A stretch of 64,000 nucleotides of DNA from Candidatus Harrisonbacteria bacterium (lineage in GTDB: Bacteria; Patescibacteriota; Minisyncoccia; UBA6257; WO2-44-18), in assembly GCA_016182295.1 (NCBI GenBank), contig JACOXP010000006.1:9298-73297 (forward strand). Direction: 5' to 3'. Every line of letters starts with the position of its first letter. The first letter of the stretch is position 1. This document shows positions 20 through 47,524 of this stretch, piece by piece. A program made the translations under genes and the position numbers. A model generated the notes under the pieces. That model saw only the letters and a program-made list of their open reading frames with translations, was not told where the DNA came from and did no database searches.

Positions 20-1120
20 ATGATCGTCGGATCATTTGGAGCTTCGATCTTGGCAGGATTGGGAGGAGAGAGAATTCTTGCGCGGGTTAAGGAAAAAGTT
101 AAAATTTCTGACCGAAAATGGTTGTTGATCGTTGCTCTTGTGATAATCTCAATCGTTATTGATTACAGAATCGTGTGGCAAAAAAAGTTTGCCATAGAAA
201 GTCCCAAAGCCGAGTTTTTGATTAACAATTCTTCGCCCAAACAATTAAAAGAATTAATTCAAACAAGAGAAGCGGGAAGAGTTCTTTCCGTTTTGCCCGA
301 TGACAGCGTGTCGGTTTTTTATTGGGCCTTAACAGGACAGGGTCCACCGAGAGACGCTGATTTGAAAGCAAAAATTGACGCGGCTTATCTTCACCCCAAT
401 GATCAGTTGTTTTATGGAATAGAGACGATTGAATTGACCGATAATTTGCCGCTTCGCATGGGTCGTTATCTCTCTCTTGTCGGGGCAAGAATTTCTGGGG
501 GCGATTATGGCGAGAGTAATTTGATAAAATATCCGGGAATGCCAATAGATCGGCTGTCTTTACTGAAGCAACGATCCAGTCTGCTTAATTTTCTCGGCGT
601 GCGTTACCTGCTTTCCGGTTTTGATTTGCGTGAAGTTGGATTCGATTATCAGAACCTTGGAAGAGTTCGGGTCGAAGGAGTGAAAGAAGCGGGTTACGCT
701 TTTGGTGTAAATGTTTATGAAAATACCGGCGCCAAACCTCTGGCTTATTTTTCTAAAATCACCGATTTTACTCAGAACGCGGACCAATCTTACGACACTT
801 TTAAAGCGAATGATTTTCGGGGAGTTTTTGTTGAATGCGCAGATTGCGGCAGTATTACCGAAGCTGGCGGCAAAATAGAAATTTTGGAAAAGACGAACGG
901 ACGAGCGATTTTACATTCCGAGTCCGATGGAGTTAGATTTCTGATTTTTTCTCAAAATTATATTCCCGGTTGGGGCGCTTGGATTGATAGCGTAGAAACA
1001 GAAATTTTTAGAGTGAACGCCGCTTTTATGGGAATTTTTGTACCCACCGGCGAGCATAAAATTAGATTCGATTTCAGATATAGCGAGCTTTTAAACCCAA
1101 AATTTTATTTTAATGAATAA
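20..1120 (+). CDS. C-terminal part of a membrane protein, YfhO-like GT-C candidate; may extend upstream of the window
   Basis: ORF starts 19 nt from the window edge. An N-terminal TM helix is followed by a large soluble domain whose C-terminus (NYIPGWGAWIDS...HKIRFDF) resembles YfhO-type membrane glycosyltransferase tails. A GT2 gene follows immediately. Confidence 0.4.
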   Translation: MIVGSFGASILAGLGGERILARVKEKVKISDRKWLLIVALVIISIVIDYRIVWQKKFAIESPKAEFLINNSSPKQLKELIQTREAGRVLSVLPDDSVSVFYWALTGQGPPRDADLKAKIDAAYLHPNDQLFYGIETIELTDNLPLRMGRYLSLVGARISGGDYGESNLIKYPGMPIDRLSLLKQRSSLLNFLGVRYLLSGFDLREVGFDYQNLGRVRVEGVKEAGYAFGVNVYENTGAKPLAYFSKITDFTQNADQSYDTFKANDFRGVFVECADCGSITEAGGKIEILEKTNGRAILHSESDGVRFLIFSQNYIPGWGAWIDSVETEIFRVNAAFMGIFVPTGEHKIRFDFRYSELLNPKFYFNE

Positions 1121-1838
1121 ACATTCCATCACTGTTCTTATTTCAGCGTTTAACGAAGAGCAGACGATCGCGGAAGCTATTTTGAAAACTGATGAAGCGT
1201 TGAGAAAGCATGTGATTGATTATGAGATCATTGTTTTTGATGATGGTAGCCGCGATGCTACCGGGAAAATAGCCGAGGACTTGGCTAAGAATAATAATCG
1301 GCTTAGAGTGGTGCGCAATAAAACCAATAAGAATCTTGGTTATAACTTGAGAATGGGCGTGTCTTTAGCTGGCAAAGAATATTGTATGGCTTTTGTTAAT
1401 GCCGACAGCTATCCGCTGGAAGAATCATTTCGCCAGTTTTTTTCAGTTTATGGCGAGAAAGATTTTGTATTAGGTTACTCCGTTAATTATGGAGACCGTC
1501 CTTGGCTGCGAAGGTTCCTCTCCTGGTTGTTTGTGAAAATTATGAATTTTTTGTTTGGTTTTAGGATTAAATATTATAACGGCCCCGTTATTATTAAAAC
1601 CGCATTATGGCGGACGGTGCCGATGACTATCGAAAGTTTCGCCTACATGGCTGAAGTAACCGCGACTCTTTTAAAAAGGGGCATAAAATATGACGAAGCG
1701 CAGATATTTTATATGCCGGAGCGTAAAGGCTTGAATATTTCGGTCTTGCGGCGTAATATTTGGGGTGTGGCTAAAGCGATTGCTTTAATGTTCTGGCGTC
1801 TGAATATAAAGCGTCAGCTTTACGTAAAACCAAAGTAG
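1113..1838 (+). CDS. Family 2 glycosyltransferase (GT-A fold)
   Basis: N-terminal VLISAFNEE...FDDGSRDATG is the classic GT2 nucleotide-sugar binding / DxD region. Start overlaps the upstream ORF stop. Confidence 0.8.
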   Translation: MNKHSITVLISAFNEEQTIAEAILKTDEALRKHVIDYEIIVFDDGSRDATGKIAEDLAKNNNRLRVVRNKTNKNLGYNLRMGVSLAGKEYCMAFVNADSYPLEESFRQFFSVYGEKDFVLGYSVNYGDRPWLRRFLSWLFVKIMNFLFGFRIKYYNGPVIIKTALWRTVPMTIESFAYMAEVTATLLKRGIKYDEAQIFYMPERKGLNISVLRRNIWGVAKAIALMFWRLNIKRQLYVKPK

Positions 1839-1854
1839 TCTACGGATTTCATTT

Positions 1855-2739
1855 ATGAATAAAACGGAGAGGGATTTCTTGAAAAATAAGAAAGTTTTGA
1901 TTGTCGGCGCGGCTGGTTCAATCGGTGGCGCGCTTTCCCGACGGGTGGCGGAATTTAAACCAAAATCACTGACGATTTTAGATCAAAATGAAAGTGAGTT
2001 GTTTTGGATTTGGGAAGAAACCAAAGAGACCTGCAAGACTAATATGGTGATTGCCGATATTCGAAATAGAGAGCGTATTGAAGAAATCTTTTTAAACTAT
2101 CGTCCGGATATAGTTTATCATTGCGCCGCCTACAAACACGTGATCTTAATGGAAATGTGGCCGCAAGAAGCCCATCGGACGAACGTTCACGGCACTCAAG
2201 TTATTGTGGATGCCGCTCTTAAATCGGGGGTTGATAAAGTAGTTTTTATCTCCACCGACAAAGCGGTAAACCCCACTTCCGTTATGGGAATGACCAAAAA
2301 AGAAGGGGAAAAAATTTGCCTCAACGCGAATAAATTAAAAAAAACTAAATTTATCGTAGTTCGTTTTGGCAATGTGATGGCTTCGCGGGGAAGTGTAATT
2401 CCAATATTTCAAAAACAAATTAACGAAGGCAAGCACCTCACGGTAACGGATCAGCGAATGGAGCGATATTTTATGGGAATTTATGAAGCGGTGGATCTTG
2501 TATTGGAGGCTTCCATGATTGGCAAAGCCGGAGACATCATGGTATTGGATATGGGCAACCCCATGCCCATTTATGAGTTGGCCAACTTGATGGTTAAACT
2601 TTCCGGGAAAAATCTTAGAGTGAATTTTACTAAAGCGGGCAAGGGAGAAAAGTTTTTTGAGGAATTGATGACTCCCGCCGAGAGAAAACGGGCTATCAAA
2701 AGAAACGGAATATATATTATTCGCTCGAAATCTCGATAA
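1855..2739 (+). CDS. CapD/PseB/FlaA1-like NAD(P)-dependent sugar 4,6-dehydratase (polysaccharide biosynthesis protein)
   Basis: Rossmann motif VLIVGAAGSIGGAL; characteristic FISTDKAVNPTSVMGMTKK motif of the CapD/FlaA1 family. Confidence 0.7.
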   Translation: MNKTERDFLKNKKVLIVGAAGSIGGALSRRVAEFKPKSLTILDQNESELFWIWEETKETCKTNMVIADIRNRERIEEIFLNYRPDIVYHCAAYKHVILMEMWPQEAHRTNVHGTQVIVDAALKSGVDKVVFISTDKAVNPTSVMGMTKKEGEKICLNANKLKKTKFIVVRFGNVMASRGSVIPIFQKQINEGKHLTVTDQRMERYFMGIYEAVDLVLEASMIGKAGDIMVLDMGNPMPIYELANLMVKLSGKNLRVNFTKAGKGEKFFEELMTPAERKRAIKRNGIYIIRSKSR

Positions 2740-2743
2740 AATT

Positions 2744-3700
2744 ATGCCAATAGCCACGCCAGTTTTGATTACTGGAGCCAGCGGTTTCGTTGGCGCTAAT
2801 TTGTTGCGGAGATTGGTAAATAATGGATTGGAGAAAAAAACCAACATTATTTTAAGAAAGAACTCCGACCCCTGGAGGATAAAAGATGTTTTAAAGAAAG
2901 CGCCTACCCACATCGTTGACTTGCGAAACGAAGAGGCCACCAGGGCATTGTTAAAAAAAATTAAACCCAAAACAATTTTTCATCTAGCCACTCACGGCGC
3001 TTACCCGCGCCAGCAATTTGAAGAAAAAGAAATAATGGAAACCAATATTACCTGCGCTTTTAATTTGATGAATAGCGCCGCGCGGACCGGCGTTAAATCG
3101 TTCATCAACACTGGAACTTCTTCAGAATACGGAATTAATAAAATGGCCATGCGCGAACAGGATCGTTTAAGTCCCGTTACCGCTTACGGCGCGAGTAAGG
3201 CCTGGGCCACGCTTTATGGAAATTATTTGGCCAATGACAAAAAATTCCCCGTAACTACATTGCGACTTTTTGGCGTGTACGGATATTACGAACCCCGCGG
3301 CAGGTTGATACCGAATATCATATTATCTTTTTTAGAAAATTCTCGACCAAAACTGACTAATCCGAAATTTATTCGAGATTTTGTTTTTATTGAAGATGTC
3401 GTTGACGCGTACATTATGGCCGCTGAAAGGAACATAGCCGGTTCTATTTTAAATGTAGGATCGGGAAGAAAAACGTCGCTTCAGGAGGTTTTTACTGTTA
3501 TAAAAGAAATTATGAACAGCGACGTTCGGCCAATTTTAGAGAAATCGAAAACCGGCATACCTGATATAAATAGGCGCGTTGCCGATGTGCAATTGGCTAA
3601 AAAGACTTTAAAATGGAAACCAAAGACGAATTTGCGCGATGGCTTGCGAAAGACCGTTAATTGGTTTAAAGATAACTTAGATTTATATGAACATCATTAA
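2744..3700 (+). CDS. NAD-dependent sugar epimerase/dehydratase (SDR family)
   Basis: VLITGASGFVGANLLRRL glycine-rich NAD motif; YGASK catalytic YxxxK; length typical of extended SDR sugar epimerases. Confidence 0.8.
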   Translation: MPIATPVLITGASGFVGANLLRRLVNNGLEKKTNIILRKNSDPWRIKDVLKKAPTHIVDLRNEEATRALLKKIKPKTIFHLATHGAYPRQQFEEKEIMETNITCAFNLMNSAARTGVKSFINTGTSSEYGINKMAMREQDRLSPVTAYGASKAWATLYGNYLANDKKFPVTTLRLFGVYGYYEPRGRLIPNIILSFLENSRPKLTNPKFIRDFVFIEDVVDAYIMAAERNIAGSILNVGSGRKTSLQEVFTVIKEIMNSDVRPILEKSKTGIPDINRRVADVQLAKKTLKWKPKTNLRDGLRKTVNWFKDNLDLYEHH

Positions 3701-4496
3701 GCTTAAAGAAATAGCTAAACAGATAAGACGCGACATTGTTACGATGACTGGAACAGCCCGCGTGGCTCATTCTGGTAGCGCTCTTTCGGCGGTTGACGCG
3801 CTTACGGCGCTCTATTTCAACTTTATGAAACTGAACCCGAAAAAACCAAATTGGCCGGGTCGGGACCGGTTTATTCTAAGCAAGGGCCACGCGGCCACGG
3901 CCTTATATGCCGCTTTGGCCAATCGGGGATTTTTTAAAAAAGAGAAATTAAAAACTTTCGCCCAAAACGGCAGTCATTTGACCTGCCATCCCAGTATTCA
4001 AAATGTGCCCGGGGTTGAGGCCACTACCGGCGCGCTGGGACACGGACTTTCAATTGGCGTTGGCATGGCTTTGGCGGGTAAGCGGGATAATAATAAACAC
4101 AATATTTACGTAATGATTTCCGACGGTGAATGCGATGAAGGTTCTGTTTGGGAGGCGGTGCTTTTTGCCGGCCATCACAAATTAAATAATCTTACGATTA
4201 TTGTTGATTACAATAAAATTCAGAGTTTCGGTCGAACCGCGGAAGTTTTGGATTTAGAGCCGCTAACCGAAAAATTCAAAGCTTTTAATTGGTGGACTAA
4301 GGAAGTTGACGGGCATAATTTAGGCGAACTTCTGTCAGTTTTAAAAGAAGCGAAAAAAATTAAAAACCAGCCGCAATGCTTAATCGCCCATACCGTAAAG
4401 GGGAAAGGTGTTTCTTTTATGGAGGATAGATTAGAATGGCATTATTGGTCGCCCAGCGGCGATTTGTTAAAAAAGGCGTTGGAGGAGCTTGCTTAA
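3687..4496 (+). CDS. Transketolase, N-terminal (thiamine-diphosphate binding) subunit
   Basis: SKGHAATALYAALA, HLTCHPS, GALGHGLSIGVGMA motifs of the TPP-binding half of split transketolases. Confidence 0.85.
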   Translation: MNIIKLKEIAKQIRRDIVTMTGTARVAHSGSALSAVDALTALYFNFMKLNPKKPNWPGRDRFILSKGHAATALYAALANRGFFKKEKLKTFAQNGSHLTCHPSIQNVPGVEATTGALGHGLSIGVGMALAGKRDNNKHNIYVMISDGECDEGSVWEAVLFAGHHKLNNLTIIVDYNKIQSFGRTAEVLDLEPLTEKFKAFNWWTKEVDGHNLGELLSVLKEAKKIKNQPQCLIAHTVKGKGVSFMEDRLEWHYWSPSGDLLKKALEELA

Positions 4497-4504
4497 AAAT
4501 TGAC

Positions 4505-5329
4505 ATGGAAAAATTTGATCCAATAAAAAATTTCAAAGAAGAAGAACAGGGAACTTTTTGGGACGAATATTCTAAAAATTTTATTTCGATTGAAGCGGCG
4601 CAAAGCACAAAATCTCTTTTAAGAGGTGAAATTAGATTGTGCGGAGATTTCTTAAGATCATCCGATCGATCAAACAAAGGAAAAATTTTGAAGTTGGATT
4701 TATGGAACGAAGCTCATCACACCGCGATTCTTACCTACATTCACCATTTTTACGACGAAGTTCATGCTATTGATATATCGCCGGACGTTGTTCGACAGGC
4801 GCTGAAAAAATTGGAAGAGAAAAATATAAAAGTTAAAGCGGTTATCGGCGATATGCGAAAGATGCCCTATCCGGACAATTCTTTTGACTATGTATACACG
4901 ATGGGCACCATTGAGCATATTCCGAGGCCACAGGACGCCATGGAAGAAATATTCAGAGTGCTGAAGCCGGGTGGGCGGGCGGTAATCGGTGTTCCCAATA
5001 AATATGAATGGTTTGGAAAATCTTTAATTTTGGACTTTTTTGCTCTTACCGGCATCAAGGAAGACGGCTACGAACATAGCTACGGTTGGCGGCAATTCAC
5101 TCGTGAGCTTGAAGATTCTGGATTGAGAGTTTTGCGCAAAACCGGCGCTTACTTTATGCCCTGGTTTATCCGGGCCGCCGATTGGTTCTTAGCTCAACGT
5201 TTGCCGAAAGCGGCAATCGTTTTATGGCCTTTCATAAAATTCTCCGACTATTTAAGCAATTCCAACTTCTTCCTTAAGCACGGCAGTGTTGTCGTGGCGG
5301 TTGTAGAGAAACCCCACCATGCGAGATAG
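4505..5329 (+). CDS. Class I SAM-dependent methyltransferase
   Basis: ILKLDLWNEAHHT...VLKPGGRAVIGVP (Methyltransf_11-like motifs I and post-I). Start chosen at MEKFD just after the transketolase stop; the tabulated longer ORF overlaps upstream. Confidence 0.7.
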   Translation: MEKFDPIKNFKEEEQGTFWDEYSKNFISIEAAQSTKSLLRGEIRLCGDFLRSSDRSNKGKILKLDLWNEAHHTAILTYIHHFYDEVHAIDISPDVVRQALKKLEEKNIKVKAVIGDMRKMPYPDNSFDYVYTMGTIEHIPRPQDAMEEIFRVLKPGGRAVIGVPNKYEWFGKSLILDFFALTGIKEDGYEHSYGWRQFTRELEDSGLRVLRKTGAYFMPWFIRAADWFLAQRLPKAAIVLWPFIKFSDYLSNSNFFLKHGSVVVAVVEKPHHAR

Positions 5330-6626
5330 CCAAGAAATAAAAAAAATTGCCGATCAGTATGGCACCCCTACCTTTATTGCTTGGAAAAACGTCATTATTG
5401 AGAATGTCAGGAGATTTCGGGAAGTTCTATGCCAATATCGAGGCGGTTCAACCTTGTGTTATTCGGCCAAGACCAATCCCCAGGTGGCAATTTTAAAAAT
5501 GATGGCCGAACAGGGAATATCCGCCGCCGTCTGTTCTGTTTTGGATACAACCGCTGCGTTCAGAGCGGGATTTTCTGGAGAAAGAATGATCTACGTCGGA
5601 TTAGTTAAAACGGATGAGGGTTTGGAGATCGCCGTTAAAAATAATTTTCGAATAATTAACGTTGAGTCTTATGACGAAGTTACGCGTTTGGCAAAAATTG
5701 CCGAGAAGCACAACAAAAAAGTTCCAGTGGGTATTCGACTTTCCTTTCCGTCCAAAACAGGCATTAAATCTCTATTGGGAGTCACGTATGACCGTTTTGG
5801 GGCAAGCGTTAAAAGTGGAGAAGCGCGGTCAATAGCCGAATTTATTGTTAAAAATCCCCATTTAGTTCTCGAGGGACTTCATTGCCATACCGGATCCAAC
5901 CAAACAAACGAAAAAAACTATCTGATAGGTATTAATCACTTGGTTGATTTCATGAGGTATTTAAAAGAAAAGCACAATGTTTCGATATCGATTTTGAACA
6001 TCGGCGGCGGAATAGGCGTCCCGACCATCAGGGCTTATTCGTTGGTAAATCTTGGCGTGAATTTTCTAAAAAACATGATTGGCCGGCCACTTCGCCACGT
6101 CAGTAACCTCCAATTTAGTCTTCCGGCAATGATGAAAAGAATTATCGATCATTTACATCAGACCTTGGATCGTCACAATCTTTCCCATCCCCATCTTATG
6201 ATGGAACCAGGAAGAGCGCTCGTCGGAGATGGGATAGATCTGGTAACGCGGATAGTCAACGAAAAAAGGACGGAGATTCGCAAGTGGTACATGATCGATG
6301 GGGGCACCAATCTCCTTCCCGCCCTTACCCTATTTTCAGAATCCCATGATATAACGGTGATAACTGATAATCGGGATTCCACTATGGAAAAACTTTCCGT
6401 CGCGGGGCCGCTTTTATACTCGGCTGACATAGTGGCGACCAACAGATTTTTACCAAAAGCGAGGATTGGCGATCTGATTGTGGTGCATGACGTTGGCGCG
6501 TATTGCGGCAGTCAGTCAAACCAGTTTCTTTACCCGAGAGCGGCAACCATATTGGTAAGTGGAAATACTTCAACCGTTATACAAAAACGGGAGTCGGTTG
6601 AAGACGTATTATCAAGGGATTTATGA
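5319..6626 (+). CDS. PLP-dependent decarboxylase, Orn/DAP/Arg decarboxylase family (fold type III)
   Basis: YSAKTNP (PLP-lysine region), HCHTGSNQ and a C-terminal beta-domain resembling diaminopimelate/ornithine decarboxylases. Confidence 0.75.
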   Translation: MRDSQEIKKIADQYGTPTFIAWKNVIIENVRRFREVLCQYRGGSTLCYSAKTNPQVAILKMMAEQGISAAVCSVLDTTAAFRAGFSGERMIYVGLVKTDEGLEIAVKNNFRIINVESYDEVTRLAKIAEKHNKKVPVGIRLSFPSKTGIKSLLGVTYDRFGASVKSGEARSIAEFIVKNPHLVLEGLHCHTGSNQTNEKNYLIGINHLVDFMRYLKEKHNVSISILNIGGGIGVPTIRAYSLVNLGVNFLKNMIGRPLRHVSNLQFSLPAMMKRIIDHLHQTLDRHNLSHPHLMMEPGRALVGDGIDLVTRIVNEKRTEIRKWYMIDGGTNLLPALTLFSESHDITVITDNRDSTMEKLSVAGPLLYSADIVATNRFLPKARIGDLIVVHDVGAYCGSQSNQFLYPRAATILVSGNTSTVIQKRESVEDVLSRDL

Positions 6627-9692: not shown

Positions 9693-9693
9693 A

Positions 9694-10602: not shown

Positions 10603-10607
10603 AAGAT

Positions 10608-31564: not shown

Positions 31565-31583
31565 TTTTGCTATAATCAAGCCC

Positions 31584-32411: not shown

Positions 32412-32415
32412 ATTT

Positions 32416-36708: not shown

Positions 36709-36726
36709 GCGAGGAGTTTTATTTTA
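36694..36726 (+). terminator. Rho-independent terminator candidate
   Basis: Inverted repeat aactcctcgc / gcgaggagtt followed by a T-run, spanning the stop codon of 35785-36708. Confidence 0.55.
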
Positions 36727-38085: not shown

Positions 38086-38657
38086 TGTATTGAATCAGCG
38101 CTCAAATTCTTAAACAACCGTTTAGCCCTGAAAAGTCGCATTTTAAGGGTGGTCATGGAAATTTTTTCCAACTTGCAGATATCCTTATATGATTTGTCTT
38201 CAAGATAATAAAATCCGAGAATTCTGCCGAGGTGTTCTGGCATTTTTTCAATGACTGCCTTGACTGCCGCTTTGGCGTCGGAAACCGCGCCCAAATTATC
38301 ATCGTAGCTTAACGGTTTTTCTTCGTCGTAAAGAACGGGATCAAGATATTCCGTTGAATCAGATCGTTTTTTGACGTCTTGATATCGCGTAAAAGCGGTA
38401 TTCATTAAAATTTTGTATGCCCAGCTCTTGAATTCTATACCGGCTCTCTTTTGGAAGTTCTTGCCGTATTTATAAATTTTAACGAAGGTTTCTTGAACAA
38501 TATCTTCAGCGTCTTCTTGTCTTCGAACAATTCCCATCGCTTTGCGAATAAAAGGATCCTGATAGCGGGCAACCAGGAATTTAAATTGAGACGGATCGCG
38601 AAATGATTGGCGCAAAATCTCCTCGTCTGGGGCTTCGGGATTCATGGCCAATACCAT
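38082..38657 (-). CDS. ECF-type RNA polymerase sigma-70 family factor
   Basis: Region 2 (DIVQETFVKIYKY) and region 4 HTH (SYKDICKLEKISMTTLKMRLFRAKRL). Confidence 0.8.
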   Translation of the reverse strand: MVLAMNPEAPDEEILRQSFRDPSQFKFLVARYQDPFIRKAMGIVRRQEDAEDIVQETFVKIYKYGKNFQKRAGIEFKSWAYKILMNTAFTRYQDVKKRSDSTEYLDPVLYDEEKPLSYDDNLGAVSDAKAAVKAVIEKMPEHLGRILGFYYLEDKSYKDICKLEKISMTTLKMRLFRAKRLFKNLSADSIQ

Positions 38658-41214: not shown

Positions 41215-42099
41215 ATGCAAAATCCCAAAATTGGCATTGTTGGAGTTGGTTGGGTGGGCGCCCAGCTCAAAAGATACTTTGAAGAATTTAGAGGATATAA
41301 ATCCGGAGAAGATCTTTTTGCTTATGATATTGATCCGAAAAAATGTGTTGGCGATCTCAATAAAGCCGACATTATTTTTCTTACTGTTCCGACGCCGCGC
41401 GATCCGCAGACCGGTGTTTGCGACACCTCAATTGTTGATAGCGCGATTAAAAAAATTCCAGGAGAAAAAATCATCGTTATCAAATCAACCGTTCCTCCAG
41501 GCACTACCGAACGTTTGCAAAAAGAACACCCGCAACATAAAATGCTTTTTAATCCGGAATTTTTGAGCGAAAAAACCGCCTGGCATGATATGTTGCGTCC
41601 CGATCGGCAGATTGTCGGTTTTACCGAAAAAAGCATGGACGCCGCTCATTTAGTCCTATCTCTATTGCCGAAGGCGCCTTTTATGTCGCCTTGGGGCGTA
41701 AGTACGTACCAGCAGACCAGAATCGCAGCTACTGAAGCGGAATTGATTAAATACGCCGGTAATGTTTATTTTGCCCAAAAAGTTAATTGGGCGAACGCCT
41801 TGGCCGCGGTATCCGAGAAACTCGGCGCCAATTATGAAAATGTGCGAAAGGGTATGTCAGCCGATCACCGGATTGGCGATTCTCATCTTGATGTCACTCA
41901 CGGCGGTTACCGAGGTTTTGGCGGATATTGCTTCCCCAAAGACCTTTCTGCTTTTATGGCGTTTGCTAAAGAGCAGGGGCTTCATAATGTCCACGATCTT
42001 TTAAAAGCGGCATGGGATTTTAACGGCAGATTGCTGGAATCACAGGGTTTGACTTATGATGATGTGAGTAGACACATCGATGAGTTCAAGCAATCTTAA
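41215..42099 (+). CDS. UDP-glucose/GDP-mannose dehydrogenase family protein lacking the C-terminal UDP-sugar domain
   Basis: N-terminal NAD domain (KIGIVGVGWVGAQL, KSTVPPGTT), central domain NPEFL and GGYCFPKD catalytic-Cys region, but only about 40 aa follow the Cys before the stop. Confidence 0.6.
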   Translation: MQNPKIGIVGVGWVGAQLKRYFEEFRGYKSGEDLFAYDIDPKKCVGDLNKADIIFLTVPTPRDPQTGVCDTSIVDSAIKKIPGEKIIVIKSTVPPGTTERLQKEHPQHKMLFNPEFLSEKTAWHDMLRPDRQIVGFTEKSMDAAHLVLSLLPKAPFMSPWGVSTYQQTRIAATEAELIKYAGNVYFAQKVNWANALAAVSEKLGANYENVRKGMSADHRIGDSHLDVTHGGYRGFGGYCFPKDLSAFMAFAKEQGLHNVHDLLKAAWDFNGRLLESQGLTYDDVSRHIDEFKQS

Positions 42100-44230
42100 A
42101 AATTACTATATTTGGGGCATTAAAGCCCTGGTTTTTATAATTCCATTTTTGTCCGTTTGGATTGCCACCTCAATGTATTTTCCATACATTACGGGACGGA
42201 ATTTTGGTTTTCGGATTTTAGTTGAAGTAGCGTTGGTTCTTTACATAGCCTTGGCGATTCTTGATAAACGATATCGTCCGCGAATGAATTTGCTTTCTTG
42301 GGCGATTCTAGTTTTCGTTGGCATTGTCGGCATCGCTGATTTATTCGGTGTGGATCCGATGCGTAGCCTCTGGTCTAACTATGAGCGAATGGAGGGTTAT
42401 ATTACAATTCTGCATCTCGGCGCTTATTTTTTTGTTTTGACTAATTTGTTCAGAAGCAAGAAAGAGTGGCTGGTTTTTTTTAGAGTTTTTTTAGCCGCCG
42501 GCCTATGGGTGGGTATATATGGAGTGCTTCAGATTTTTGGGGTTAAAGAAGCAATCCAAGGAAATGGCGCTCGTATTGATGGAACAATTGGCAATCCAAC
42601 TTATTTAGCAGTCTATTTAACCTTGATTATAGGCCTTAGTTTGATATTGTTTTTTAATACGCAAAGCCGCAGTTGGAAATATTTCTACGGGTCAATAATC
42701 GCCTTTCTGATTTCTATAATGTTTTTTACGGCAAGTCGAGGCGCCGCATTAGCTTGGGCAATTGCCGTGCCGCTCTTTTTAATTTTATATCTCTGGCTTT
42801 TCCGCAAGGAAAAAGGCGGCGAAAAAGTAAGAAAAATTATGATCGGTATTCTGATCGCCATGGTAATAGCGCCCCCTTTATTTTTGTTAATAAAAAACCA
42901 GTCGTGGGTTAGAGAGCACCCGGTTCTTTCTCGTTTCACTCAAATTTCGTTTCAAGAAAGAACCACCCGTTCTCGTTTTATGATTTGGGGAATGGGCGCG
43001 CAAGGGTTTTTAGAGCGCCCGCTTCTTGGTTGGGGGCAGGAAAATTATCTTCAAGTTTTTTCCAAATATTACAACCCAAGTCTTTATGATCAGGAGCCGT
43101 GGTTTGACCGCTCGCATAATATAGTTTTTGATTGGTTGATAAACGCTGGCATTTTGGGTCTGTTGGCTTATCTTTCGCTCTTCACGACTTACTACGTATT
43201 GTTTGCTCGCGGTTGGAAGTCCGGTAAAGTCGGCAAGAAAGAAGGACTTGTTTTATTGGTTCTGCCCATCGCTTATTTTATTCAGAATCTTTTCGTTTTC
43301 GACAATATCAACACCTATATCATCTTCTTTACACTTCTTGCCTACGTGAATAACTGGGAGTCCGAGTCGATTGTTGAGCGTAGGGATAGGGTAATTGCAG
43401 AAATTAAACCGTCCTTAATCGCTCTTGCTGTTAGCGGATTAATTGCTTTGCCTATCGTTTATTTAGCTAACGTCAAACCCGCTTTACAAGCGAGGTCAAT
43501 TATCAGTGGTTTAGCCGCTACTTCCAGCAGTAAAGATCCCGTTGGCGAAACCCTTAGCGCTTTTGAGAAAGCTTTATCTTACAACACTTTTGGCAATGGT
43601 GAAGCGCTTGAACAGCTCGGTAGAGTAACCAGAAACTTACTCGACCAAGACGTTCCCAATCAAATTAAAACCCGTTTTATTAATTATCTAGTCCCCAAAA
43701 TCGAAGAATATTTAAAAAAACATCCTAACGATATTCGAATTCATCTTTTTATTGCCGATATCTATCAATCAGCCATTAATATCGATGAATCTTATGTGCT
43801 TAAAGCTCGCGAACATTTTGAAGCGGCCTTAGCGCTTAGTCCCCAAAAACAGCAAATCCTTACGGCGCTCGCCAACAATTTTTTGTTTACCGGCGAAAGT
43901 GAAAAATCTTTTGAGCTTTTACGCAAAGCTATTGATGTTGAGCCATCCAACATAGAAGCTCATGGAAATTATGCGATTTATGCGGTTTTGGCTAGTCGCA
44001 ACGATCTCGTTGCGGAAGAAATCGCGGAAATGAATCGCCTCCAGAAAAACTTGGAGAAGCGAGGCGAATCCGCCTTCAACGATTACCTCGATCAACTTAA
44101 AAGAATCGCTGAAATTTATCGACGGGTTGATCAGATACAAAATGCCATTATTATTTATCAAGAATTGATTAGACTTTCTCCGACCAATGTTAATTTCCAG
44201 ACTGCCTTAAAAGAATTACAGTCAAAATAA
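42080..44230 (+). CDS. O-antigen ligase/polymerase-like (Wzy_C) membrane protein with C-terminal TPR repeats
   Basis: About 12 TM helices with FFTASRGAALAWAIAVPLF (Wzy_C periplasmic loop motif); C-terminal 250 aa of TPR-like repeats. Confidence 0.7.
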   Translation: MSSSNLKNYYIWGIKALVFIIPFLSVWIATSMYFPYITGRNFGFRILVEVALVLYIALAILDKRYRPRMNLLSWAILVFVGIVGIADLFGVDPMRSLWSNYERMEGYITILHLGAYFFVLTNLFRSKKEWLVFFRVFLAAGLWVGIYGVLQIFGVKEAIQGNGARIDGTIGNPTYLAVYLTLIIGLSLILFFNTQSRSWKYFYGSIIAFLISIMFFTASRGAALAWAIAVPLFLILYLWLFRKEKGGEKVRKIMIGILIAMVIAPPLFLLIKNQSWVREHPVLSRFTQISFQERTTRSRFMIWGMGAQGFLERPLLGWGQENYLQVFSKYYNPSLYDQEPWFDRSHNIVFDWLINAGILGLLAYLSLFTTYYVLFARGWKSGKVGKKEGLVLLVLPIAYFIQNLFVFDNINTYIIFFTLLAYVNNWESESIVERRDRVIAEIKPSLIALAVSGLIALPIVYLANVKPALQARSIISGLAATSSSKDPVGETLSAFEKALSYNTFGNGEALEQLGRVTRNLLDQDVPNQIKTRFINYLVPKIEEYLKKHPNDIRIHLFIADIYQSAINIDESYVLKAREHFEAALALSPQKQQILTALANNFLFTGESEKSFELLRKAIDVEPSNIEAHGNYAIYAVLASRNDLVAEEIAEMNRLQKNLEKRGESAFNDYLDQLKRIAEIYRRVDQIQNAIIIYQELIRLSPTNVNFQTALKELQSK

Positions 44231-44235
44231 CGCAA

Positions 44236-44937
44236 ATGAAAGCGATAATTTTAGCAGGTGGATTAGGAACGCGGCTTCATCCGGTTACTTTGGAAACTCC
44301 CAAAGCTCTTTTGACGGTAAAAAGGAAACCAATAATCAATTATTTAATAGAACTTTTTACCCGTCACGGCATTAAAGACATCGCTGTGCTTGCTAATAGC
44401 GCCCAAAAGGACGATTTCCATTGGTGGCAGAAGAGACATAAAAAAAACTTGCCAAAAACCCTAAAAATAAAATGGGAACCGCGGCTTCGAGGAACTTTTG
44501 GAGGTATTCGCGAGCTTCAGCGAGAATTGAAAGAGCCGTTTATTCTTACCAATGGCGACGAGATAAAAGATTTTGATTTGGAAAAACTTTTGAAGTTTCA
44601 CAAAAATCATCGCTATCAGCCGCACGCCACCATCGCCCTTGTAAAAGTTCCCGACCCCCGCGCTTACGGAGTGCCGGTTATGCAAGGCGATGAGATAAAA
44701 ATGTTTTTAGAGAAACCGGAGAATCCTCCGACAAAGTACATTTCCTCCGGCCTTTACGTATTAGAGCCAGAGGTCTTTGATTACGCCGATTGGAAAAAAG
44801 ATTTTTTGATGATTGAAAAAGATATTTTTCCGAAAATCGCCGAAAAAAGAAAATTGATTGGTTATAAAGTTCCAAAAGGCAAATGGCTTGATTGCGGCAC
44901 TCTGGACCGTTGGGCCAGCGCTATCCGAGAGCTTTAA
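44236..44937 (+). CDS. Sugar-1-phosphate nucleotidyltransferase
   Basis: MKAIILAGGLGTRLHPVTLETPKALL is the canonical NTP-transferase N-terminus. Confidence 0.8.
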   Translation: MKAIILAGGLGTRLHPVTLETPKALLTVKRKPIINYLIELFTRHGIKDIAVLANSAQKDDFHWWQKRHKKNLPKTLKIKWEPRLRGTFGGIRELQRELKEPFILTNGDEIKDFDLEKLLKFHKNHRYQPHATIALVKVPDPRAYGVPVMQGDEIKMFLEKPENPPTKYISSGLYVLEPEVFDYADWKKDFLMIEKDIFPKIAEKRKLIGYKVPKGKWLDCGTLDRWASAIREL

Positions 44938-46189
44938 TTTGGCGGGCTTTTCGCCAAATCAAGGCGTTGGTTAGCAGTTGCGTGATTATCGTGGAAACAG
45001 CGGCGCCTTCTATGCCGAACGGCGGAATCAGCAATAAATTAAAAGCCACATTGCCAAACGCCGCCGCGCCCACGAAAGTTACAAATGATTTTTGGTGGTC
45101 ATAGGCAAAAATGGCATTTCCCAAAAGTGTTGATGGGTAGACAACCGCCACCGTAAGAATTAAAAGCTGAAAAGTAACGACAGCCGGCAAATATTCCGCG
45201 CCGAAGAGCAAGTTAATAATTGGAGTCGCGAGCGCCACGCCAGCGATTACGATAGGAATAGAAAAAATAACTACCCTTTTGACATATTTTTTCAGAATTA
45301 TGTTTGCCTCGGCAATGTTCTGTTTAACCAGTCTGGTTAAAATCGGAAAAATACTTGAAGCGAGCAAACTAGGCAATATGTAAAGCAACTGTATTGGTTT
45401 CTGAGCGGCGGAATAAAAACCCACTTCCTCTGCTGTCCGGAGCCAACCAAGCATAATAATGTCCGTGTTGAGCATTATCGCCCCCATTAAACCCATCAGG
45501 CCAAATGGCCAAGCGGTGGAGATAATTGGTTTGATTAGTTCTTTTCTGAAGTTTCCTATAAGGTTGCGGAAATGCGATCGCAACACGAATAAAATCGCGA
45601 GCAAACCTATGCCGCTGCCGGCGGCATAAGCAAAAGCTAAAGAGTAACTGCTGGGATTAAGCGTTAGAAAAATAAATCCCAAGATGACAATGGCAAAATT
45701 GGTCAAGACGTGGATGCCCGCTTCAATTTCCATTTTTTCCAGAGCGCGGGAGACTGCCGATCCGAGATCCCGCAAAGTATCAAAAGCAAAAACAAAAATC
45801 AAAATCGGCATGATCATCGCTGCTTCCTCGATATTTGTTAGATAAGGGAAAAAAGCGATTACCCCCAAAACCAATATTAGAAGAAGACCCAATTTGGTGA
45901 AAAAAGCAGTGGAAAGATAACGATCTTTTAATTCCGGATTGCGCGACGCTTCTTTGGTAATAAGAGCGTTAATGCCGATGTCGGAAAAAATTGTCAGAAA
46001 AGCGGCAATTCCAAGAGCGTAAGAAAAAGCTCCCCAACCGGCGGCTCCCAACGCTCGAGCGGCGTAAATTACAATCGCCGCTCGCAAGAGACGGCCAACT
46101 ATTTGTCCGGAAAAAAGCCAAAAAGTGTTTTTAGCGATTGTTTGGGAAATCGTTTGGTTTTTAAAAAGCCAATCTAAAAAAAAGCGCAT
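44921..46189 (-). CDS. Wzx-like polysaccharide flippase (PST/MOP superfamily)
   Basis: 422 aa, about 12 TM helices, lysine/arginine-poor loops, family-typical N-terminus (TFWLFSGQIVGRLL). Immediately downstream of, and co-directional with, the sugar transferase. Confidence 0.65.
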   Translation of the reverse strand: MRFFLDWLFKNQTISQTIAKNTFWLFSGQIVGRLLRAAIVIYAARALGAAGWGAFSYALGIAAFLTIFSDIGINALITKEASRNPELKDRYLSTAFFTKLGLLLILVLGVIAFFPYLTNIEEAAMIMPILIFVFAFDTLRDLGSAVSRALEKMEIEAGIHVLTNFAIVILGFIFLTLNPSSYSLAFAYAAGSGIGLLAILFVLRSHFRNLIGNFRKELIKPIISTAWPFGLMGLMGAIMLNTDIIMLGWLRTAEEVGFYSAAQKPIQLLYILPSLLASSIFPILTRLVKQNIAEANIILKKYVKRVVIFSIPIVIAGVALATPIINLLFGAEYLPAVVTFQLLILTVAVVYPSTLLGNAIFAYDHQKSFVTFVGAAAFGNVAFNLLLIPPFGIEGAAVSTIITQLLTNALIWRKARQIKALG

Positions 46190-47524
46190 TTATTTATGTG
46201 ATGTAAAAAGATATTTAACGGTTCGAAGAAGAATCAAAAAGTCCAAGGCGAGCGACCGATTTTTTAAATAATACATGTCATATTGTAGTTTTTCGTAAGC
46301 ATCTTCGATAGAAGCGCCATACTTGTAGTTAATCTGCGCCCATCCGGTGATTCCCGGGCGGACCAACAAGCGCAATTCGAAGTAAGGCACATCCTTTTTT
46401 AATTGACTTACAAACTCCGGCCGTTCCGGGCGAGGTCCGACGAAAGACAATTCTCCTCTGATGATATTCCAAAGCTGGGGTAGTTCATCGAGGTGGCTCT
46501 TGCGTAAAATTTTACCGATAGTTGTCACGCGGCTATCTTTGGTCACAGCCCATTGGGGCCCGGATTTTTCCGCGTCGAACTGCATGGTGCGAAATTTGTA
46601 GATCATGAAATCATGTTCGTTTTGGCCAGAGCGAGTCTGTTTATAAATAATAGGGCCCCGCGAAGTAAGGGCGATTAGAATAGAAATCAAGATGCTTACT
46701 GGCAGAAGAACTACGGAAAATACTACCGCTAACAGAAACTCAATTGGCCTTTTGAAAAATTCGTAAATTTTGTGACTTTTGGAAAGATTTTCCAAAAACC
46801 AGACTTCTTCGAGTTCGGCGAGCGGCAGTTTCTGAAAAACTTTTTCGTAAAGCGCGGCGAGATCCCAAACCTCTATTCCCGATACCATATTTTTGTAGAT
46901 GAGCCGAGCCGCTTTGGAATTCTTCTTGATGTGAGCGGGGACGACAATTAAATTTATTTTACTGTTGAGAATTATTTGGGCCAGATGATCGAATTCTTTA
47001 TCTTGCAGTCCCTCCTTCATCCAAAAACTTATTTCATAGCCAAGCTGGGGATTTTTTCCGATGTGATCGGCCAATTCCTCAACGGTTTTATTGTAGCCAA
47101 TCATCAGAATTCGATTTACGGGTCCGCCGGCGCTTAGGATATTATTGTAAAAACTTCGCCAAATATAACCGCCCAAACCGGAAAGCAGCACAACGATGAA
47201 AAGATTTATTTTTGGCGTGATGACAAAGGCGGGAATAAAGTAGAAAAGAATGGTGGCGATTACACCGTTGATAAAAACCAAAGTGGTAAAGCTTCTGCTG
47301 AAAGCCAGGTCATTTTTGAGAAAGCTTAGATCGTAAAGCCCACCGATATAAAAACCCAAAAGCCAGATGCCGAAAATAATCGTGAAGGGAACAAAATGAG
47401 TTTCTAAAATAACATCAGGAATACCTTGGTAGCGGAGGGTTAATGTCAAAAAAAACGACGCGTATAAAACGGCAATATCTCCAAAAAGGAGGATGAGTTG
47501 TTTCAGCTTGACGTGGATGCTCAT
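46190..47524 (-). CDS. Polyprenyl-phosphate hexose-1-phosphate transferase (WbaP/WcaJ/PglC-like bacterial sugar transferase)
   Basis: N-terminal TM helices plus C-terminal catalytic domain with DELPQLWN...VGPRPERPEF...PGITGWAQI motifs. Confidence 0.85.
   Translation of the reverse strand: MSIHVKLKQLILLFGDIAVLYASFFLTLTLRYQGIPDVILETHFVPFTIIFGIWLLGFYIGGLYDLSFLKNDLAFSRSFTTLVFINGVIATILFYFIPAFVITPKINLFIVVLLSGLGGYIWRSFYNNILSAGGPVNRILMIGYNKTVEELADHIGKNPQLGYEISFWMKEGLQDKEFDHLAQIILNSKINLIVVPAHIKKNSKAARLIYKNMVSGIEVWDLAALYEKVFQKLPLAELEEVWFLENLSKSHKIYEFFKRPIEFLLAVVFSVVLLPVSILISILIALTSRGPIIYKQTRSGQNEHDFMIYKFRTMQFDAEKSGPQWAVTKDSRVTTIGKILRKSHLDELPQLWNIIRGELSFVGPRPERPEFVSQLKKDVPYFELRLLVRPGITGWAQINYKYGASIEDAYEKLQYDMYYLKNRSLALDFLILLRTVKYLFTSHK

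Follow-up and report, generated by a model that had tools for sequence, protein, structure and literature searches.

A probable mosaic cell-surface glycan locus around a conserved nonulosonic acid core in Candidatus Harrisonbacteria

Organization and extent of the locus

The 64,000-nt stretch of DNA analyzed here (the window) belongs to contig JACOXP010000006.1 of a Candidatus Harrisonbacteria genome, from a Parcubacteria lineage that belongs to the candidate phyla radiation (CPR). Most of it is taken up by genes for glycan biosynthesis, among them a predicted pathway for a nonulosonic acid (NulO), that is, a sialic-acid-like sugar. Genes were taken from a list of open reading frames (ORFs), and about 60 proteins were scanned against Pfam and NCBIfam profiles (Table 1). 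The NeuB, AT2, GTC1, and short UGDH proteins are 100% identical to the Ca. Harrisonbacteria metagenome-assembled genome (MAG) proteins MBI2024702.1, HYT03_01175, MBI2024683.1, and MBI2024704.1, respectively.

Between positions 1113 and 47524 lie 47 protein genes, 43 on the plus strand and four on the minus strand (a probable anti-sigma factor, an ECF sigma factor, the Wzx flippase, and the initiating phosphoglycosyltransferase). The 39 genes from 20 to 37636 form a single co-directional run in which 19 of the 38 junctions overlap and the largest gap does not exceed 33 nt; the two carrier-protein genes (ORFs of 75 and 76 amino acids) occupy the only two "gaps" of this run. One ORF, listed as 10308-11966, has its true start at an ATG at 10608. 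The GC content varies from 0.38 to 0.49 along the window, in which no clear compositional (GC) island was seen.

These counts agree with a preliminary description of the window, made from the sequence alone, which had reported a cluster of about 46 kb and 45 mostly plus-strand genes that overlap or abut. The start that it gave, position 1113, was set too far downstream. A contig stretch (L007) that is identical to window positions 1-3891 (no mismatch over 3891 nt) reveals the upstream part, in which the plus-strand run begins ~7.6 kb before the window, or 8.4 kb if a divergent methyltransferase gene on the minus strand just 5' of the run is included. Besides this third methyltransferase, the upstream genes encode two TagF-like proteins, two methyltransferases, a 330-aa protein without assignment, a GT4 glycosyltransferase, and the full 714-aa YfhO protein. 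The glycan locus thus spans at least 56 kb in total. All functional classes of the gene inventory given earlier are represented, and the profile searches recovered four methyltransferases, one formyltransferase, two deacetylases, a decarboxylase and a dioxygenase (the last a weak PhyH match), the CapD/PseB-like dehydratase (326 bits with Polysacc_synt_2), two carrier-protein modules (14733-14960 with FkbH, 27586-27816 with a phosphopantetheinyl transferase and an adenylation domain), and, with cut-offs exceeded, the Wzy_C-TPR protein, Wzx-like flippase, and initiating transferase at the far end. The "four or five" short-chain dehydrogenases/reductases (SDRs) resolved into three extended SDRs and one FabG-like SDR.

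Table 1 Predicted genes of the glycan locus, with positions in the window and the matches on which the assignments rest (bit scores; TM, transmembrane segments; SAM, S-adenosylmethionine; PLP, pyridoxal phosphate; ThDP, thiamine diphosphate; AF2, AlphaFold2)
Feature	Position	Strand	Evidence
YfhO-type GT-C glycosyltransferase, C-terminal 366 of 714 aa (cut by window start)	20..1120	+	YfhO 25.8 on the fragment
GT2a, partner of the YfhO protein	1113..1838	+	Glycos_transf_2 77.8; 8-nt overlap with YfhO stop
CapD/PseB-like NDP-HexNAc 4,6-dehydratase	1855..2739	+	Polysacc_synt_2 325.8
Extended SDR epimerase/dehydratase SDR1	2744..3700	+	Epimerase 150.9; below all NCBIfam cut-offs
Transketolase N-terminal (ThDP-binding) half	3687..4496	+	Transketolase_N 167
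SAM methyltransferase MT1	4436..5329	+	Methyltransf_11 77
PLP-dependent Orn/DAP/Arg-type decarboxylase	5319..6626	+	Orn_Arg_deC_N 114.7
Extended SDR SDR2, HpnA/thioester-reductase-like	6623..7603	+	Epimerase 122.9, NAD_binding_4 99.7
Transketolase pyrimidine-binding and C-terminal half	7600..8517	+	Transket_pyr 117, Transketolase_C 86
SAM methyltransferase MT2 (392 aa)	8514..9692	+	Methyltransf_23 56
PhyH-like Fe(II)/2-oxoglutarate dioxygenase, weak match	9694..10602	+	PhyH 26.2 (cut-off 22)
TagF-like GT-B paralog 1	10608..11966	+	Glyphos_transf 23.5 (cut-off 22.1); no TM
FkbH-like HAD-IIIC enzyme, predicted to load a glyceryl unit on ACP	11994..13571	+	TIGR01686 275.9 (cut-off 146.65)
MaoC-type (R)-hydratase/dehydratase	13576..14016	+	MaoC_dehydratas 63.6
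FabG-like classical SDR ketoreductase	14020..14721	+	adh_short_C2 159
Acyl carrier protein ACP1	14733..14960	+	PP-binding 29.4 (cut-off 20.8); WDSF serine motif
Double-GNAT acyltransferase AT1	14963..16066	+	Weak GNAT matches; paralog of AT2
NodB-type deacetylase DA1	16067..16972	+	Polysacc_deac_1 75
NodB-type deacetylase DA2	16969..17904	+	Polysacc_deac_1 83
SAM methyltransferase MT3	17908..18603	+	Methyltransf_25 59.7
Formyltransferase (sugar N-formyltransferase-like)	18600..19409	+	Formyl_trans_N 52.8
TagF-like GT-B paralog 2	19406..20737	+	Glyphos_transf 47.4 (cut-off 22.1)
GT-C-fold membrane glycosyltransferase GTC1	20743..22626	+	AF2 pLDDT 85, pTM 0.88; Foldseek
Extended SDR SDR3, NDP-sugar dehydratase/epimerase-like	22623..23606	+	Epimerase 182.5, GDP_Man_Dehyd 182.3
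GT2b, polyprenyl-phosphate hexose synthase-like	23603..24349	+	Glycos_transf_2 115.6; C-terminal TM
TagF-like GT-B paralog 3	24358..25743	+	Glyphos_transf 45.2 (cut-off 22.1)
4'-Phosphopantetheinyl transferase (PPTase)	25747..26088	+	ACPS 60.8
Stand-alone NRPS-type amino-acid adenylation (A) enzyme	26076..27608	+	TIGR01733 346.4 (cut-off 317.4)
Peptidyl/aminoacyl carrier protein (PCP)	27586..27816	+	DltC-like 34.9 (below cut-off 68); LDSF motif
Double-GNAT acyltransferase AT2	27807..28892	+	AF2 pLDDT 93.7; Foldseek tandem GNAT, N-myristoyltransferase-type, E 2e-14
NeuC, hydrolysing UDP-HexNAc 2-epimerase	28902..30071	+	TIGR03568 362 (cut-off 235.9)
CMP-NulO synthetase (NeuA-like)	30061..30792	+	CTP_transf_3 91.5 (cut-off 22.6)
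SAM methyltransferase MT4	30776..31564	+	Methyltransf_23/11 67.7
GT2c, polyprenyl-phosphate hexose synthase-like	31539..32411	+	Glycos_transf_2 104
GT-C-fold membrane glycosyltransferase GTC2	32359..34329	+	37% identical to GTC1 over 640 aa, E 3e-128
D-2-hydroxyacid dehydrogenase (2HADH)	34353..35309	+	2-Hacid_dh_C 190; PGDH/glyoxylate-reductase-like
Small cupin	35311..35751	+	Cupin_2 30.6; 63-81% identical in related loci
EamA/DMT transporter 1	35785..36708	+	EamA 34; 8 TM
EamA/DMT transporter 2	36737..37636	+	EamA 67.5; 9 TM
Small 2-TM protein (105 aa), probable anti-sigma factor	37768..38085	-	No family match; 4-nt overlap with ECF sigma gene
ECF-type sigma-70 factor, divergent from neuB	38082..38657	-	Sigma70_r2, r4_2
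NeuB-family NulO synthase	38721..39842	+	Pfam NeuB 254.9 (cut-off 22.1), SAF
382-aa soluble protein, possible GT-B, unproven	39932..41080	+	No Pfam, NCBIfam, or PDB match
Short UDP-sugar dehydrogenase (UGDH)-like	41215..42099	+	UDPG_MGDP_dh_N and central domain only
Wzy_C membrane protein with C-terminal TPR (ligase/O-oligosaccharyltransferase/polymerase)	42080..44230	+	Wzy_C 63.9 (cut-off 31.7); 11 TM
Sugar-1-phosphate nucleotidyltransferase	44236..44937	+	NTP_transferase 137
Wzx-type flippase	44921..46189	-	Polysacc_synt 135.7 (cut-off 28.2); 12 TM
Initiating polyprenyl-phosphate glycosylphosphotransferase (PGT)	46190..47524	-	Bac_transf 215; TIGR03025 352 (cut-off 295.55)

The nonulosonic acid core

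At the level of enzyme families, NeuC, NeuB, and the NeuA-like protein together make up a complete three-step route from UDP-HexNAc to CMP-NulO. NeuC exceeds the cut-off of its equivalog model, which does not separate NeuC from LegG; it scores just 56 bits with the wecB model, and its PDB matches include the GNE epimerase (217 bits) and LegG (188 bits). NeuB and the NeuA-like protein exceed their Pfam cut-offs, so that all three calls of the preliminary description survived the profile searches. NeuB remains below the cut-offs of the subtype models NeuB_NnaB (TIGR03569, 282.9 versus 399.65 bits) and PseI (228 versus 340 bits), and it scores equally against N-acetylneuraminic acid (Neu5Ac)-, legionaminic acid (Leg; SpsE/LegI-type)-, and pseudaminic acid (Pse)-type synthase structures. 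The top NCBIfam match of the NeuA-like protein is PseF (198.1 bits, below the cut-off of 205.7), and its nearest PDB entries are CMP-Neu5Ac synthetases (E 9e-41). The SDHS and EKHF metal-binding histidine motifs of NeuB are invariant in an alignment of 27 members of its clade and lie 21 residues apart, a spacing shared with Neisseria meningitidis NeuB.

Neither a DegT-type or other aminotransferase nor PseG or PseH/PglD was detected by Pfam scans of all genes from 8.9 kb upstream of the window to its end at +64 kb, an interval in which no unscanned ORF large enough for an aminotransferase remains. The expectation that the aminotransferase and N-acetyltransferase of a Pse or Leg pathway might lie upstream thus found no support in the 8.9 kb before the window or in the window itself. 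Four further NeuB/NeuC/NeuA (NeuBCA) contexts (L003/L093, L005/L006, L091, and L092) likewise have no aminotransferase, PseG, or PseH among the called genes within ~10 kb on either side of the query. A DegT gene was sought as a positive control in locus L086, which carries a second NulO gene set, and none was found in the stretch examined; the evidence for its absence from the window is thus the Pfam scanning of every gene. The set of enzymes for legionaminic acid (4,6-dehydratase, LegC/PglE, and LegH/PglD) is represented over the same interval by a sub-threshold CapD-like dehydratase only. Because no aminotransferase was found, a Neu-type NulO derived from UDP-GlcNAc is favoured over Pse or Leg, and is the more parsimonious route.

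We consider it unlikely that the product is instead a 5,7-diamino sugar of the Leg/Pse type, with the CapD/PseB-like enzyme (1855-2739) as first step, the aminotransferase and N-acetyltransferase encoded elsewhere, and formyl, acyl, or aminoacyl groups placed on N5 and N7. The dehydratase has PseB as its best NCBIfam match, the NeuA-like protein has PseF as its best, NeuC lies near LegG, and NeuB does not discriminate between structure types; moreover, those NulOs that are known to bear N-formyl, N-hydroxyacyl, N-glyceroyl, or N-alanyl groups derive from Pse or Leg (in part from PMC5378307). Set against these points are the missing aminotransferase, PseG, and PseH/PglD, both here and in the four other contexts, and a dehydratase score far from that of a true PseB (191 bits versus a TIGR03589 cut-off of 407.75). 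The dehydratase gene also lies 27 kb from neuC in a part of the locus that is not conserved, and where a CapD homologue occurs near NeuB in other genomes, it comes with a second, divergent NeuBCA set (31-37% identity). Finally, a hydrolysing epimerase of the NeuC type rules out the PseG-dependent route to Pse.

Conservation in related genomes and beyond the CPR

One genome per GTDB species was scanned for the motifs of the window's NeuB clade. The clade was found in 414 GTDB species representatives, overwhelmingly CPR, with named records among Harrison-, Yanofsky-, Sungii-, Giovannoni-, and Magasanikbacteria, Paceibacterota, Minisyncoccia, and the "Patescibacteria group", and a few among Woesearchaeota and Nanoarchaeota. 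Eighty loci were taken for comparison (referred to by L numbers), and genes near NeuB were counted by tblastn of all window proteins in the 32 loci with complete 10-kb flanks. NeuC and NeuA accompany NeuB in 27 of these 32, a TagF-like protein and the short UGDH-like protein in 17 each, Wzy_C/TPR in 15, the PGT in 12, and a deacetylase in 9; the 2HADH gene adjoins the NulO genes in 20 and also in a Verrucomicrobiae locus (L091). The recurrent core reads NeuC-NeuA-2HADH-(cupin)-EamA-NeuB-short UGDH-Wzy_C/TPR-Wzx-PGT, with one to three EamA/DMT transporters per locus. A NulO locus is therefore the norm in this Parcubacteria lineage, which overturns the earlier impression that such a cluster is unusual for a small low-GC genome.

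In locus L016, a counterpart of window positions 24358-47524 was identified with 49-78% identity and the order TagF3-PPTase-A domain-PCP-AT2-NeuC-NeuA-2HADH-cupin-EamA-NeuB-short UGDH-Wzy_C-NTP transferase-Wzx-PGT, the last two on the minus strand. The order TagF3-PPTase-A domain-PCP-AT2 is kept in both L016 and L093. The closest relative (NeuB 83% identical) retains TagF-PPTase-A-PCP-AT2 and the core, and carries SIS_2, TAL_FSA, GFO_IDH_MocA, and HAD genes at its 5' side in place of those for the transketolase and decarboxylase. Comparison of gene order thus indicates that the 3' ~23 kb form a conserved block and that the 5' part is a set of variable cassettes. The conservation expected of the whole cluster in related genomes was accordingly found for the 3' ~23 kb, and not for the 5' 10 kb (1855-10602), which are species-specific.

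This mosaic structure also bears on a reading in which the locus is not one pathway but an island of independent systems (a NulO glycan, GT2/GT-C side chains, and a 6-deoxy-hexosamine or other rare sugar), with most tailoring directed at sugars other than the NulO. We regard this as possible, if on balance doubtful. It would account for the restriction of synteny to 24358-47524, for 5' contents that differ even in the closest relative, for the shuffling of cassettes between genomes, and for a split transketolase that belongs to a housekeeping operon in another genome (see below). Co-directional and tight packing is general in CPR genomes, and the housekeeping genes downstream in the window are also on the plus strand with short gaps. 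It accounts less well for FkbH, ACP, acyltransferase, deacetylase, and TagF-like genes that travel with NeuBCA across phyla, and for the immediate adjacency of AT2 and NeuC in the window, L015, and L016. The island reading and the explanation that we prefer overlap as regards the 5' 10 kb, the latter being that of cassettes around a conserved NulO core.

The association across phyla is seen in two loci whose proteins are 23-45% identical to those of the window. A Verrucomicrobiae MAG (L091, DATJBF010000027.1) has the order NeuB-NeuC-NeuA-2HADH-GT2-FkbH-[ACP::AT]-MaoC-deacetylase and, further on, a TagF-like gene; on a 1.87-Mb contig (L092) the order is ACP-FkbH-AT-deacetylase-NeuB-NeuA-NeuC, again followed at some distance by a TagF-like gene.

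Contigs binned as DPANN archaea (Woesearchaeota/Nanoarchaeota; L038, L041, L042, L064, L075, and L077) also have NeuB proteins, which share 55-64% identity with the CPR clade and are in many cases accompanied by NeuC and NeuA. They could stem from transfer between domains among ultra-small symbionts or from mis-binning. In five genomes (L021, L062, L063, L081, and L086) a second, divergent NeuB/NeuC/NeuA set of 31-41% identity stands in tandem with the first, so that these genomes would carry two NulO pathways; a CapD-like dehydratase is present in three of the five (L063, L081, and L086).

Assembly, export, and conserved partners

The PGT, Wzx, and Wzy_C/TPR proteins at family level constitute a set for lipid-linked assembly and export. 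The short UGDH-like protein precedes Wzy_C, the last 20 nt of its gene being shared with the 5' end of wzy_C. It has no C-terminal UDP-binding domain and keeps the catalytic cysteine motif GGYCFPKD, aligning to residues ~73-304 of UGDHs of 400-480 aa (TIGR03026 147.6 bits, below the cut-off of 189.8). This short form is kept in relatives (302-311 aa). Short UGDH and Wzy_C/TPR both occur within ~10 kb of NeuB in 20 loci, and they are direct neighbours where coordinates were compared (L003, L005, L011, L015, and L016). For the 2HADH, PDB matches were generic PGDH/glyoxylate reductases and gave no functional clue. The small cupin was considered as a YhcH/NanQ-like sialic-acid enzyme and rejected as such (DUF386 17 bits versus a cut-off of 26.5, and no PDB match).

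The ECF sigma and anti-sigma pair divergent from neuB recurs at the same position 5' of neuB in L011 (79% and 64% identical, respectively), which suggests envelope-stress control of the genes from neuB to wzy_C. In a scan of 34-50 kb, promoter and terminator counts were at the background of shuffled sequence (31 versus 24.8 and 29 versus 23.9), and no operon boundaries were obtained. A strong 12-bp GC-rich hairpin, followed by a T-run, is located where the gene for EamA transporter 1 ends (stop codon; 36693-36720) and is the sole convincing terminator- or attenuator-like structure within the co-directional run.

Carrier-protein acyl modules and deacetylases

Two modules with carrier proteins were identified. 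The first consists of FkbH-MaoC-FabG-like-ACP1-AT1-DA1-DA2, and the second of PPTase-A domain-PCP-AT2. FkbH also exceeds the cut-off of TIGR01681 (60 versus 35.75 bits), and its cognate ACP1 is encoded three genes 3'. The A domain, which is nearest in the PDB to A domains of nonribosomal peptide synthetases (NRPSs) and stays below the DltA equivalog (292 versus 559.85 bits), has the core motifs A3-A10 (SGSTG, FDLS, YGPTE, YKTGD, GRRD, and NGK), with the FDLS aspartate typical of alpha-amino-acid activation. The acyltransferases AT1 and AT2 share 23% identity over their full length (E 1e-25). At least eight homologues of the AT2 family are fused to a PP-binding domain; by a Rosetta-stone argument these fusions point to acyl donors on carrier proteins, and AT2 is therefore probably carrier-protein dependent.

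Neither TM segments nor signal peptides were found in DA1 and DA2, so that both deacetylases are predicted to be cytoplasmic. Homologues of DA2 adjoin NeuC in L011, L012, and L072, and in L069 a PPTase-FkbH-ACP-MaoC-FabG group lies ~1.7 kb 5' of NeuB. Gene neighbourhood in several genomes thus suggests that the acyl modules belong with the NulO pathway, and de-N-acetylation followed by carrier-dependent re-N-acylation would be the simplest chemistry consistent with these genes. The formyltransferase has formyltransferase/ArnA-like models as its top NCBIfam matches, below their cut-offs.

Glycosyltransferases

The three TagF-like GT-B paralogs between 1113 and 47524 are soluble and share 43% identity (10608-11966 with 19406-20737) and 28% identity. 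Their top NCBIfam match is the BFO_1060 family (NF046086), at 73.5, 74.1, and 52.8 bits and thus below the cut-off of 200. Members of this family are required for the transfer of a Pse/Leg derivative to the S-layer O-glycan of Tannerella, as demonstrated by knock-out and complementation (PMC5420450). Paralog 1 is regarded as a candidate CMP-NulO transferase. No GT38, GT42, GT52, or GT80 sialyltransferase family was found among the Pfam or NCBIfam matches. The preliminary description had counted four GT-B-like paralogs; three lie in its range, and two more are encoded upstream of the window. The protein at 39932-41080, tried as the fourth, gave a probability of 5.6% in hhalign against the TagF-like profile and was left unassigned.

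If the TagF-like proteins were true polyol-phosphate transferases, the locus could make a teichoic-acid-like polymer with Dlt-like D-alanylation by the A domain and carrier, the NulO being minor or separate. The Glyphos_transf scores of two paralogs (47.4 and 45.2 bits) lie above the cut-off, the carrier protein has DltC as its best match, the A domain matches DltA models, and CPR bacteria are monoderm-like. Nevertheless, we judge this polymer improbable. No CDP-glycerol or CDP-ribitol synthase (TagD/TarI/TarJ), DltB (MBOAT), or DltD was detected in the window or the upstream genes, the A domain falls well short of DltA (292 versus 560 bits) and is closer to NRPS A domains, and the acceptor-side enzyme beside the carrier is a soluble double-GNAT protein, not an MBOAT. 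TagF-like genes furthermore lie within ~10 kb of NulO genes in 17 of the 32 full-flank loci.

All three GT2/GT-C pairs proposed for the locus were upheld, one with a YfhO-type protein (the full gene in L007 carries PF09586) and two with GT-C proteins recognized by predicted fold. GTC1 and GTC2 have at least 9 TM segments and no Pfam or NCBIfam match even at E<=5, and structure prediction with Foldseek assigns them a GT-C fold. The top 26 PDB matches of GTC1 are all GT-C enzymes, among them PglB, STT3, DPY19, AftA, ArnT, AftD, and AglB (E 2e-7 to 1e-3, TM-score ~0.45); after its first TM segment D50 is near-invariant and E61 and D64 are invariant. An exhaustive HMMER search recovered 1594 cluster representatives of the family, 317 of them at E<=1e-30. 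Many members carry an N-terminal extension of 200-380 aa, and the two that were checked, P0127 and P0129, are GT2 fusions. The partners GT2b and GT2c are nearest to polyprenyl-phosphate-hexose synthases (AglJ, dolichyl-phosphate (Dol-P)-hexose transferase, PpgS, and ArnC), all below cut-off: the best NCBIfam matches are AglJ/ArnC/Dol-P-hexose transferase for GT2b, and Dol-P-hexose transferase (108 bits) and AglJ (94 bits) for GT2c.

The variable 5' module and the 3' flank

No gene of the module at 1855-10602 reaches an equivalog cut-off, the decarboxylase remaining just under that of lysA (263 versus 298 bits). Both halves of the split transketolase proposed earlier were matched by profiles. 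Its role as a tailoring enzyme was not sustained. Among the 80 loci the halves were found only in L051 (N half 43% identical), in an operon (1530-8544) of RpiB-Rpe-TKn-TKc-PfkB-FBA-PfkB-2-hydroxyacid dehydrogenase immediately 5' of a SET-domain gene and NeuB. This pentose-phosphate context indicates that the split transketolase is an ordinary CPR housekeeping form and no evidence of tailoring. A function as a QncN/QncL-like generator of glycolyl-ACP was rejected on the same ground and because a lipoyl/E2 domain is lacking. A homologue of the PhyH-like protein, 48% identical, is again found directly 5' of TagF-like genes in L090 (9027-12161), which hints that dioxygenase and TagF-like transferase are a functional pair.

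The 3' flank of the glycan locus (47548-59104) encodes a DsbA-like oxidoreductase, a CCA-adding enzyme, tRNA-Pro(CGG) (49788-49859, the sole RNA gene found in the window by tRNA and Rfam scans), an SDR epimerase, and two Rce1-like CAAX proteases, and then thioredoxin reductase, a PaaX_M-like protein, two small secreted paralogs that share 27% identity (54264-54707 and 55446-55925), and a secreted protein of 1066 aa with a lamin-tail domain (LTD). The order DsbA-TrxB-LTD is also present in L005/L006, and it is conceivable that the LTD protein is a substrate for glycosylation.

Proposed pathway and its significance

Taken together, we hypothesize, with some confidence, that the locus is a mosaic cell-surface glycan locus in which cassettes are arranged around a conserved NulO core and a Neu-type NulO is made, re-acylated, and exported. 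UDP-GlcNAc would be converted via ManNAc and a Neu5Ac-like sugar to the CMP-NulO by NeuC, NeuB, and NeuA. In the cytoplasm, DA1 and DA2 would de-N-acetylate either the NulO or the hexosamine from which it is made, and AT1 and AT2 would attach new acyl groups from carrier proteins to the amine thus freed. One such group would be derived from glycerate (a glyceroyl unit, or a lactyl unit if MaoC dehydrates and the FabG-like enzyme reduces it), and the other would be an amino acid that the A domain activates. Formyltransferase and methyltransferases may give further variants. The TagF-like/BFO_1060-like cytoplasmic GT-Bs would move the CMP-NulO(s) onto an undecaprenyl-PP-linked oligosaccharide begun by the PGT, which Wzx would flip and Wzy_C/TPR would polymerise or pass to a surface protein or wall acceptor. 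The GT2/GT-C pairs may use polyprenyl-P-monosaccharides to attach side-branch sugars on the outer face of the membrane, and the module at 1855-10602 may make another modified sugar or supply precursors. The earlier proposal of a heavily modified sialic-acid-like sugar in a surface glycan is thus supported, as the best reading, by the NulO pathway, the TagF-like, PGT, Wzx, and Wzy_C genes, and synteny; its Pse/Leg expectation and the conservation of the block as a whole are not.

Several points weigh against this hypothesis. NeuB and NeuA reach no subtype cut-off, so that the Neu type of the NulO is a prediction; the locus does contain a CapD/PseB-like dehydratase, and other parts of the genome could encode an aminotransferase. 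Formally, the TagF-like proteins belong to the Pfam family of CDP-glycerol glycerophosphotransferases, and they lie far under the BFO_1060 cut-off (73 versus 200 bits). Promoter and terminator counts at background give no support to a single transcript. The 2HADH, cupin, EamA, and short UGDH genes and the whole 1855-10602 module are not accounted for. Finally, it is from gene neighbourhood that we infer on which substrates and at which stage the deacetylases, acyltransferases, formyltransferase, and methyltransferases would act, and with this which tailoring enzymes would modify the NulO and which other sugars.

A wider generalization is offered only tentatively: that diversification of sialic acids by aminotransferase-free NeuBCA, NodB deacetylase, and carrier-dependent tandem-GNAT enzymes occurs in at least two lineages, is lineage-wide in Parcubacteria, and decorates surface proteins or pili. 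If true, the products would be counterparts, in bacteria, of sialic acids of the Neu5Gc kind. All enzyme families involved are familiar ones, and nothing is categorically new. The combination of aminotransferase-free NeuBCA, a deacetylase, tandem-GNATs with FkbH or A-domain donors, TagF-like proteins, and an unannotated GT-C family was not described in the literature searched. No link between NulOs and Patescibacteria was found there either, besides passing mention of sialic-acid genes in Peregrinibacteria, and a large phylogeny of NulO synthases does not mention candidate phyla.

CPR/Patescibacteria are ultra-small and mostly episymbiotic, and their surface chemistry is essentially uncharted. 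Here, at least 56 kb of such a genome would serve one surface glycan system. A NulO core in hundreds of Parcubacteria species points to sialic-acid-like sugars as a regular trait of these surfaces, where they could bear on host attachment, phage defence, and immune-like recognition. The FkbH/ACP/double-GNAT/deacetylase cassette is a candidate genetic basis for non-acetyl N-acyl groups of NulOs (glyceroyl, lactyl, or aminoacyl), and GTC1 and GTC2 define a sizeable GT-C family outside current Pfam.

Comparison with known systems

The core resembles the NeuC-NeuB-NeuA systems of Escherichia coli K1 and N. meningitidis in having the same three families in one locus, a NeuC above the equivalog cut-off, the histidine motifs of NeuB, and no need for an aminotransferase. 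It differs in that NeuB (283 versus 400 bits) and NeuA remain below equivalog level and NeuB belongs to a CPR-specific clade. Classical kps/neu loci also lack the 2HADH, cupin, EamA, deacetylases, and carrier-dependent acyltransferases of the window.

Assembly by Wzx/Wzy systems is well known, and the Wzy_C family includes the O-oligosaccharyltransferases WaaL, PglL, and PilO/TfpO. The window has PGT, Wzx, and Wzy_C proteins side by side, as in such systems. However, the host has no lipopolysaccharide, the Wzy_C protein bears a C-terminal TPR, there is no chain-length regulator, and in relatives a truncated UGDH-like gene usually stands beside Wzy_C or within ~10 kb of NeuB. Three-component extracytoplasmic glycosylation combines a GtrB/CsbB-like GT2 with a GT-C enzyme (YfhO, GtrC, or ArnT). 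The GT2s of the window are likewise paired or translationally coupled with polytopic GT-Cs, of which one is a genuine YfhO, whereas the other two belong to a family without Pfam model and no flippase of the GtrA type was noted among the genes of the window.

The split transketolase QncN/QncL, which makes glycolyl-ACP (PMC6335953), has the same division into a ThDP-binding half and a pyrimidine-binding/C-terminal half and ACPs in the locus; the window has no lipoyl/E2 acyltransferase domain, and the resemblance is probably superficial. Dlt D-alanylation differs from the window in that the DltA and DltC scores stay below cut-off (292 versus 559.85 and 34.9 versus 68 bits) and neither an MBOAT nor DltD is present.

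FkbH forms glyceryl-ACP in methoxymalonyl-ACP and tetronate pathways, and FkbH-DH-KR loading leads to D-lactate in bryostatin. The window shares with these an FkbH above its curated cut-off, an ACP encoded as a separate protein, a dehydratase-ketoreductase pair, and a PPTase within the locus. It has no polyketide synthase or NRPS assembly line, and the unit presumably goes to a sugar amine via a GNAT-fold enzyme. In Nod factor synthesis, de-N-acetylation by NodB is followed by N-acylation by NodA from acyl-NodF. The window follows a similar logic, with a cytoplasmic NodB-family deacetylase, a dedicated carrier, and an N-acyltransferase in one sugar-modifying operon. In contrast, its tandem GNAT is not NodA, its donors would be glycerate-derived or aminoacyl units and not fatty acids, and its acceptor would presumably be a hexosamine or NulO in place of a chito-oligosaccharide.

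The O-glycosylation system of Tannerella forsythia (Pse5Am7Gra or a Leg derivative; Tanf_01245/BFO_1060) is comparable in placing a soluble TagB/TagF-like GT-B beside NulO genes. There, the N-acyl groups of the NulO include ones other than acetyl (glyceroyl, possibly glycolyl), and the sugar is found on surface proteins (PMC5420450, PMC5378307). Tannerella differs in using Pse/Leg routes with aminotransferases, and the window proteins score only 53-74 bits with the BFO_1060 family against the cut-off of 200. The genetic basis of the N-glyceroyl group in Tannerella was called unsolved by its authors (PMC5378307), whereas the locus in the window encodes an FkbH/ACP/acyltransferase set.

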